Assembly (NCBI GenBank): GCA_964016885.1 | Contig: OZ024754.1 | Span: forward strand, 6,882,001-6,946,000 | Direction: 5' to 3' | DNA from: Eledone cirrhosa | Lineage: Eukaryota | Length of the DNA: 64,000 nt | Shown here: positions 39,619 through 41,685 of the stretch, piece after piece | Numbering within the stretch: position 1 is the stretch's first letter | Layout: each line of letters begins with the position of its first letter | Translations under genes and position numbers: made by a program | Notes under the pieces: model-generated | What the model was told of the DNA's origin: nothing | The model's database searches: none | Seen by the model: only the letters and a program-made list of their open reading frames with translations

Positions 39619-41096
39619 GGTGCGGACGATATTTGTTCGCAAGATTACTGTCTAGGAAAAAAATATGTGTATGATGCAACACTGATTCTTTATATATACA
39701 CACACACACATATATATATATATATACATACATACACATATATACATATACATATTTGCGTATGGGATAAATGACCCAGAAACATGTTGATTGTTCCTTA
39801 AAGCCAGTGTTGAAAAAACAGGTGATGAACAATCACTGGCATGGTACAGCTTCAAATTGGGCCGTTTATTTACAAACGAATTGAACATTTTTATTACTAT
39901 TCGATATAATCCATACGTACATATGTATATGTATATATGTGTGTGTATGTATATATACTGTAGAGTGCTTCGAATCTGTTATAAATAAATTTGTTGAATA
40001 ACCAACAAATTAAATACCTCTTTGCTTATATATATGTTTGATATGTCTAAGTGAAATAATACAGCCAATTTTCCACACAATACATTTAGTTAGCACCCCT
40101 AACGCTTAATTAGGAATATACTCACTTATTTCCTAATGTTTGTTGAGTGAGTTGGAATTTAGCCAGAGTATCGCTAAAAGCTTTCTACGATAATGTATTT
40201 ATATATTATATATATATATATATATGAACATGTGCATACTTAAATTTATATATCAGCTGTGCTAGGGCGAAAAATATAATTCTAATTTTATTTTTTCAGT
40301 ATATATAGTTTTATTTATTCCACACACACACACACACACACGTGGAGTAATTAATAAACCTGGCACCATACCTGTGTATAGATTTGAGAATAAGCAAGCC
40401 AAAAAAGAAAAAAAGAAAACTTCACACACCTCAGAGCATATAAAAAAAAAATTAATTTACTATAATTGAGAGTTATGTTGAATGAAATTTGAACAAATTA
40501 TTAAAAACTGTCATTGGTTACCTGTAGTTTTGGGGTCACCGTACTTGACCTCGTTTAATAAACCTAGCCTAGTTCTCCTCAATTTACAGTTGTATTACCT
40601 TTCATTTTGGCATTACTGTTTCAGTGAAGTTCACTCATGTATGAGTTGTTAGCCTTTTGACCCACAACTAATCCTGCAACTGGCAAGGAGTGTATGACAT
40701 GGCATTCTGTTTGCGAGGGAATTGTGGTTTTAAGAAATCTCAAGGAGAGAAAAAACAAATCCTTCATAATAAATGACCTGTTTGCTATTTCCTAGAACAC
40801 GCAACATGTTAGCCGCCAAATCACTTTCCAGTTAAAATGAAAGTTTGTAGTCTCTCTCTCAGGGAAGGGAAGGCAGATGTTAAAAAGCAATGATGATGAT
40901 GATATATATATATATCTGTGTGTGTGTATATATATATATATTACTTTATATATATATATATATATATTTCACAGCACCAATACTAATACGTAATTTTTGC
41001 TGGACTGGCAATCGTTCTGTTTAATCAGCTCCTGATTATTTCTGGAATTCTATAAGAATCCTGCCTCTATAATTCTTGGCAAAGGCAACTGAGTGT

Positions 41097-41146
41097 GTGG
41101 TCTTGATAAACGCTCACAAGCGAGAAACAGACTGTCTGTCGGCCGC
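41097..41146 (+). ncRNA. Type I hammerhead ribozyme, U3-A8 core variant, within a 321-bp unit (40965-41310)
   Basis: Stem I GTGGTC/GGCCGC (two G-U pairs), TTGATAA, stem II CGCT-caca-AGCG, GAAA, stem III ACAGAC-T-GTCTGT, GTC triplet (cut after 41140). Confidence 0.75.
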
Positions 41147-41685
41147 TCTCTCTTGTTTATGCCGAGAATAAGTAAGTGACATAGTCACTACTTTAAAATT
41201 CATAGCGAATGGTTTTCTAAATATTTTTAATTAAACATACGGTATATTGCTAAATATACTATACATACATTCATGTATACATCGCTATTTCAGAGCACCA
41301 ATCCTAATACCATATATATATATGTATCATCATCATCATCGTTTAACGTCTATCTTCTACGCTAGCATGGGTTGGACGGTTTAGTCCCACTTGAGGCGAG
41401 GTTGGTCAGGAGACCGTGTCTAGCTCGTACAGAACTGTCCCTGGCAGGTTTTCTCTGGCTGGATGCCCTTCCTAACACCAATCACATTTACAGTGTGGAC
41501 TGGTAGCCTTTTTACCGAGGCCATATTAGTTTGGTTTTGGTTGTAACTGCCTTAGCTCCTCAAATTGTAAACCTAAAAAATAATGAAATATTATAAAAAA
41601 TCCTTTAAATTTGGAAAAGATTTATGTTTCTTGATAGAGGGGGCCGGGCGAGCTTGTGATATTATTCCCTCACCGGTTAGCCCCT

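Follow-up and report, generated by a model that had tools for sequence, protein, structure and literature searches.

A hammerhead-bearing repeat copy between (TA)n tracts

The window, the whole stretch of 64,000 nucleotides of Eledone cirrhosa DNA analysed here (contig OZ024754.1, positions 6,882,001 to 6,946,000), carries on its plus strand, at 40965..41310, a copy of a 321-nt non-autonomous hammerhead retroelement, made up of one unit plus 25 nt and identical at 307 of 321 positions to the majority sequence of the subfamily that we call A. With the unit numbered so that 40965 is position 1, the 25-mers at 40965-40989 and 41286-41310 lie 321 nt apart, as the preliminary description had it, and are identical at 23 of 25 positions; they differ at unit site 339, where they carry A and C, the majority alleles of subfamilies A and B, respectively. 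The upstream 25-mer (40965..40989, plus strand, with the A allele) is the tail copy that ends a preceding, 5'-truncated unit, and the downstream one, with the C allele, lies in a PLE-type tail (41283..41310, plus strand) between two fixed 3' ends, a model taken from the part of PMC11167929 available to us. On the left, the copy is flanked by a (TA)n-rich stretch (40902..40964) that may in part be a decayed extension of the upstream unit: 40926-40989 is 73% identical to the 3' part of the unit, so that the terminal redundancy is possibly longer than 25 nt, the match being uncertain in so TA-rich a stretch. On the right lies a (TA)n target tract (41312..41327) of a kind shared by most sister copies. 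The sequences at 40869-40918 and 41311-41357 are the ends of another very abundant repeat, which face each other across the insertion as a flanking inverted repeat. The element has no RT + GIY-YIG ORF and is a PLE passenger in its behaviour, not an autonomous PLE; five PLE proteins compared with the window gave no match.

What had been described as a unique island proved to be one member of a dispersed multi-copy family, with 62 exact genomic matches to a 28-mer of the core and 713 to a 24-mer of the tail; a genome search gave 3250 first-look candidates, 40 of which were scored. The single-copy state that the preliminary description had named as telling against a retrozyme is thus not what the genome holds. 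To describe the anatomy of the family we compared 133 deduplicated loci. The longest segment has its 3' end at 305-319 in 59 of them and at about 345 in another 50, leaving 24 that end at other positions; 109 loci thus share two fixed end points, which lie 27 nt from each other. These correspond in the window to about 41282 (unit 318) and to 41309/41310 (unit 345/346), and they recur in 30 loci chosen by the core pattern. Most 3' ends lead into (TA)n. The 5' ends, on the other hand, are scattered over the unit, and 51 of the 133 loci begin with an inverted arm. The circular permutation that a genome-wide comparison had been expected to reveal is not seen at the 3' ends of the copies; the tandem multimers sought in the same comparison did, as partial tandems, dimers and 2.5-mers, the longest insert measuring 820 nt. 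Inserts longer than one unit make up 92 of the 133 loci, lengths being biased upward because the loci are top BLAST matches, picked in part for spanning the unit junction. In 30 loci examined from the tail, the sequence continues into the unit in 21, stops in nine and runs into a PLE ORF in none.

Two 3' ends with an optional tail, partial tandems, inverted 5' copies and (TA)n targets are together the pattern of PLE insertions, and we infer that the two fixed 3' ends are start sites of reverse transcription. It follows from this pattern that the 25-mer consists of a PLE tail and of the end of a unit truncated upstream of it. It is not a TSD, because the same 25-mer recurs in hundreds of copies with different flanks; the Penelope tail, which had been offered as an alternative, was the correct reading and is compatible with retrozyme identity. 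The unit itself has the make-up of a non-LTR retrozyme monomer (321 nt, 36% GC, non-coding, one type I hammerhead); a further characteristic of such retrozymes is found in L147, L167 and L191 and not in the window copy, which has one hammerhead.

Two candidate features of the family were rejected. An array on C10 with 3-kb spacing, considered as an autonomous tandem, is a segmental repeat without a PLE ORF; at C10:51.30-51.33 Mb (L031, L032) such a segmental array of about 3 kb has a single family-A copy in each of its repeats. We likewise dismissed an intron of 179 nt that would span the unit junction: there is no spliced genomic copy (0 matches to one exact pattern), nor any among 15 joints shown of 60. 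Intron-like signals are visible in the unit, namely a donor-like motif at 41172-41177 (GTAAGT in A and B, GTATGT in C), an acceptor-like AG at 41027-41028, a branch-like CTAAT where the tail ends and, after approximately 55 nt that lack an AG, an acceptor-like CAG.

The U3-A8 ribozyme and its conservation

The compact hammerhead reported at 41097-41146 (plus strand), with its 3-8 pair kept as U3-A8 (41103/41108), is confirmed in the sequence. It is of type I, with stem I formed by 41097-41102/41141-41146, stem II by 41111-41114/41119-41122 and a 5-bp stem III by 41127-41131/41135-41139, and with an A.A mismatch (41110/41123) at the base of stem II. The core nucleotides, the 3-8 pair, the three stems and an NUH site are all in place. 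The site is GUC (41138..41141, plus strand), with C17 at 41140, and places the predicted cleavage at 41140|41141, unit 176/177, which is exactly where six sister copies are broken (L207, L265, L266, L317, L325 and L316). The hammerhead fold is the MFE of the 50-mer. The MFE of the circular monomer contains a predicted long hairpin (41072..41169, plus strand) that extends stem I on both sides by pairing 41072-41096 with 41147-41169, and the monomer folded as a circle reaches a predicted z of -4.4 against 60 shuffles.

Comparison across the family indicates that selection acts on this ribozyme. All 35 of the subfamily-A copies compared have U3 and 34 have A8, and each A of the A.A mismatch is kept in 34 of 35, which marks the mismatch as a family feature, not decay. 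In the sister subfamilies B, C, D and E, at 70-85% identity, stems I, II and III are altered in compensatory fashion, as judged by inspection of the sequences, with stem I of subfamily A taken from the 35-copy set. Across 142 parsed ribozymes, at loci chosen by BLAST, the 3-8 pair is C-G in 78, U-A in 53 and something else in 11, and thus C-G or U-A in 131 of 142. Positions 10.1-11.1 are not consistently a Watson-Crick pair: they are A.A in A, U.U or A-U in B, C.A in C and G-C in D; an active axolotl motif is likewise mismatched there (PMC7229834, as far as available). The preliminary suggestion of a retrozyme-type element with a working U3-A8 hammerhead is supported by this covariation and by junctions at the predicted cut site. 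Its description of U3-A8 as a rare variant does not hold in this genome, in which several autonomous RT + GIY-YIG families carry it.

That the 25-mer represents a long TSD, and that the hammerhead is dead or folds by chance, is on these data a very remote possibility. It could draw on the 76-nt piece around the ribozyme, which folds no better than its shuffles (z -0.79), and on an Rfam search that gave no hammerhead match, but against it stand the differing flanks of the tail motif in its 713 exact copies, the compensatory changes at 3-8 and in three stems, and the breaks at the predicted cut.

Autonomous PLEs and joins between predicted cut sites

The autonomous RT + GIY-YIG families of this genome share with the window family U3-A8 cores, two 3' ends and (TA)n targets. 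One of them is represented by a near-complete pLTR-ORF-pLTR element of Neptune/Nematis type (L063, C1:145.87 Mb), with U3-A8, a 938-aa open frame and ribozymes 4979 nt apart. Another repeat, F, bears a U3-A8 hammerhead of its own, in which stem III contains a long loop, a structure that was read by eye. In five of ten fetched loci F lies downstream of the C-termini of PLE ORFs that are 67-80% identical to the L065 protein, and an F-type tail stands before the L065 start codon; from this arrangement F is taken to be the pLTR of an autonomous PLE. The nuclease at the C-terminus of that PLE and its CX4CxxC linker agree with what the part of PMC8557442 consulted says of Neptune/Nematis elements. 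Homology between the tails of A and F is not clear. Since the hammerheads of F and L065 (L272; L065:850-1120, minus strand) have U3-A8 and a loop of about 50 nt inserted into stem III, short-stem descriptors would overlook them.

Could the unit, then, be only a solo pLTR, or the truncated end of an unsampled autonomous PLE? Its anatomy is the same as that of autonomous PLE ends, and the search for an autonomous relative covered 50 of the 150 GIY-YIG places listed, none of which has the unit as its pLTR. Of 30 loci followed from the tail, however, 21 return to the unit itself and none enters an ORF, the unit also occurs as dimers and 2.5-mers, and the PLE protein matches near units turned out to be unrelated neighbours, all of which makes this possibility improbable. 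We consider instead, with a probability of roughly 0.8, that the window island is a copy of a PLE-mobilised non-LTR retrozyme with a U3-A8 ribozyme that cut its RNA in the germline. Two observations sit less easily with this reading: 24 of 133 loci have other 3' ends, and the 50 GIY-YIG loci include no parent with the unit's pLTR. What the genome does show is capture of the retrozyme by family F.

The case for cleavage in the germline comes from junctions. L207, a locus picked by the core pattern, is a palindrome with both arms stopping at unit 176, where the cut is predicted; one of the arms is a monomer of 321 nt that runs from 177 to 176, its 5' boundary lying within a 4-nt microhomology. 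The sequence beyond unit 176 in L207 is the 3' end of F, beginning exactly at F's own predicted cut. Such blunt A|F joins, in which an A 5' product ending exactly at C17 meets the 3' cut product of the F hammerhead, are found at five loci (C1:194.90 Mb, C1:403.41 Mb, C13:13.30 Mb, C13:33.27 Mb and C27:8.01 Mb). The 19-mer that stops at the A cut has 133 exact matches, and the 15 that are followed by two non-G bases comprise five F joins at four loci, one direct break (L316), seven CpG variants, one substitution and one deletion. In L316 both arms terminate at 176 and the flanks differ. Subfamily C (L379) and two unrelated C3-G8 hammerheads (L312, L357) are also joined to F-type pieces at their own C17. 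Because the A subtype in L325 is unlike that in L207, there were at least two A events and five independent events in all; the remaining A|F loci could descend from one chimera, as only two A subtypes can be told apart. The A|F joint is spanned, by 36 and 76 letters, in one contig of run X1, a run that may come from the assembly's own sample. A further locus that resembles such a join (L380) was left out of the count, the part downstream of its junction not being F.

F is itself broken at its own cut site, with 79 matches that have a non-native preceding base against 531 that are native. Among the first 30 of the 79, 28 are non-native across the last 14 bases, three of these 28 being short internal deletions and some being arm junctions. 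A control one base downstream gave 32 matches, with six of 20 non-native, which extrapolates to about 74 breaks at the cut site against about 10 one base on. At L295, L297, L299 and L302, L065-like PLE ORF fragments are fused directly to the F 3' cut product. At L385 (C10, about 5.163 Mb), a 37-nt GC-rich insert is enclosed by two 3' pieces of F in inverted orientation, each of which begins at the cut site.

The common subfamily B, in the same searches, has neither a join to F nor a foreign join at its cut site. No A/B crossovers were found at the cut site, which suggests that jumps between different monomers are uncommon there, and a 5' barrier at the cut site, considered for families A and B, was not seen. 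Whether the joins arose by ligation or by jumping, A RNA ended at C176, and the junctions at predicted cuts indicate that the hammerheads of PLEs and retrozymes are likely to cleave in the germline. In the literature surveyed by title and abstract we found no cut-site-to-cut-site genomic chimeras; a prior mention may stand in supplements or subscription journals.

Origin of the joins and the proposed cycle

Two routes to the joins were weighed. RNA ligation of the RtcB type, joining a 2',3'-cyclic phosphate to a 5'-OH before reverse transcription, would alter only the final step of the mechanism. Hammerhead products bear exactly such ends, and these chemistries match the ligation route. The joins, moreover, are blunt, without microhomology and involve four different hammerheads, and the same join is present in both arms of palindromic insertions. 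RtcB closes retrozyme monomers (PMC7229834), and chimeras of U6 and L1 have been proposed to form by such ligation (PMC6789731), both sources being known to us in part. Against ligation stands L290 (C1, about 349.429 Mb), in which the 3' end of a tRNA-Gly(GCC) is joined, in both arms, to the F cut site with a CCA that is absent from the two gene copies compared, one base being deleted. A mature CCA end is a 3'-OH, which to our knowledge RtcB does not use, and this 3'-OH donor favours end-to-end template jumping over ligation. That the L290 join, too, is in both arms means that joins shared between arms do not prove a ligated RNA. Most F breaks, in addition, join F to non-ribozyme sequence such as PLE ORF fragments or A-rich ends. 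End-to-end template jumping of the reverse transcriptase is accordingly the route that we favour as rather probable, with ligation holding a lesser, though appreciable, chance. A tandem array with a spacing of about 2.5 kb at C1:141.18-141.28 Mb carries a tRNA-Gly(GCC), as called by ARAGORN, in the three loci scanned.

The preliminary description took the window copy for the cDNA of one 321-nt circle, which implies that the enzyme ran once round a single circular template and that the 25-mers were identical at insertion. This is not borne out, given that 3' ends are not permuted and that the two repeats differ at the subfamily-diagnostic site 339 (A vs C), and we regard it as unlikely for the window copy. 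Across the family, five of 15 informative A tandems are discordant at 339, against a background A-to-C rate of 0.5% (P 2e-7 unless the site is a hotspot), A tandems share two rare variants with 2.0 expected, and two mixed tandems, L151 (a B and an A unit) and L145 (an A and a C-like unit), are joined in register. In-register tandems or mosaics of different subfamilies are seen in L151, L145 and L016, the switch in L151 lying between unit 277 and 339, an interval that spans the 318 start site. On the side of a circle, monomers cut at both ends existed, as the L207 arm documents, and the monomer folds well as a circle in prediction. A copies, furthermore, have no 5' pile-up at 177, with 0 foreign joins among 65 3' pieces (only those preceded by a purine being visible) against about 5.6 expected at F's rate; only two of 133 5' ends fall at 173-181; and inserts reach 2.5 units. 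Units within B tandems have 48 rare variants in common where 5.1 would be expected, clustered in a few loci, and one of these loci may have arisen by local duplication at a later time. What looked like a systematic contrast between the upstream and the downstream unit in B was traced to gap placement. A covalent circle somewhere in the family's cycle has, taken together, about even odds.

Metazoan non-LTR retrozymes, for which an origin from or mobilisation by PLEs has been proposed before, resemble the window family in having a low-GC, non-coding unit of about 300 nt with one type I hammerhead per unit, in monomers and short tandems (PMC7229834 and 10.64898/2026.07.22.740005, in the parts consulted). 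In the axolotl ribozyme HHR_Amex2 the base of helix II is likewise mismatched, in that case as U.U. Unlike these retrozymes as the same parts describe them, most subfamilies here have U3-A8, and the copies are mostly dispersed 1-1.5-mers with a PLE tail and inverted arms, not long arrays; genomic cut-site joins, which those parts do not describe, are present here, in a family known from genomic DNA alone. With PLEs the family shares the optional tail, partial tandems, inverted 5' copies and (TA)n targets (PMC8557442), and with PLE pLTR hammerheads an extra nucleotide after position 9, U3-A8 covariation having been reported for Schistosoma PLE ribozymes (PMC4209133). As those partial sources portray PLEs, the window family differs in having no ORF, a stem III of 5 bp that is not minimal and a tail of 27-28 nt, not 30-40.

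Two further systems bear on the mechanism. In the Poseidon element PAc, following the available part of PMC11167929, two internal RT starts downstream of the ribozyme define the tail and targets are AT-rich, as here, and both strands are cut and extended, which fits the two-armed insertions of this genome. Cleavage was there dispensable in vitro and no RNA-seq reads ended at the cut, whereas genomic copies here begin and end at cuts. U6/LINE-1 chimeric retrocopies, in the part of PMC6789731 consulted, similarly couple an RNA with a defined 3' end to the 3' portion of a retrotransposon before integration; here, by contrast, both ends are ribozyme-made, the carrier is a PLE and the tRNA-CCA example points to template jumping.

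A cycle consistent with these traces would begin with longer-than-unit transcripts that self-cleave after C17 into 177-to-176 monomers. A PLE protein of Neptune/Nematis type (RT + GIY-YIG) would nick (TA)n and prime internally at unit 318 or 345, leaving the optional tail, and reverse transcription would continue past the cut site because the template was uncut or re-closed as a circle, or by an end-to-end jump, producing the terminal repeat. When running off the cut 5' end of F, the enzyme would jump to other RNA 3' ends, including the cut end of the retrozyme. The wider proposal has the hammerheads of PLEs and of retrozymes cutting RNA in the germline and PLE reverse transcriptase stitching cut RNA ends together end to end (retrozyme monomers, ribozyme products, tRNA and fragments of its own mRNA); we put it forward tentatively, at slightly under even odds.

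The class of element was already known, and the value of this family lies in the traces of mechanism, not in the window copy itself. What is new are the joins from cut site to cut site as unusually direct traces of ribozyme activity, the evidence for cleavage being indirect but specific, as read from sequence. The role of hammerheads in PLEs has been called unclear (in the consulted part of PMC8557442). Junctions fixed in DNA at the predicted cuts of five ribozymes (A, C, F and two others) speak for cleavage in the germline, including by a U3-A8 core with a 10.1-11.1 mismatch, and the A|F joins place retrozyme RNA and a specific autonomous PLE on one cDNA, giving a named pair of enzyme and RNA. 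If the proposal is true, the end-to-end step could rebuild PLE and retrozyme tandems without a covalent circle and would create new chimeras of ribozymes and retroelements, and genomic junctions would provide an in vivo read-out of ribozyme activity.
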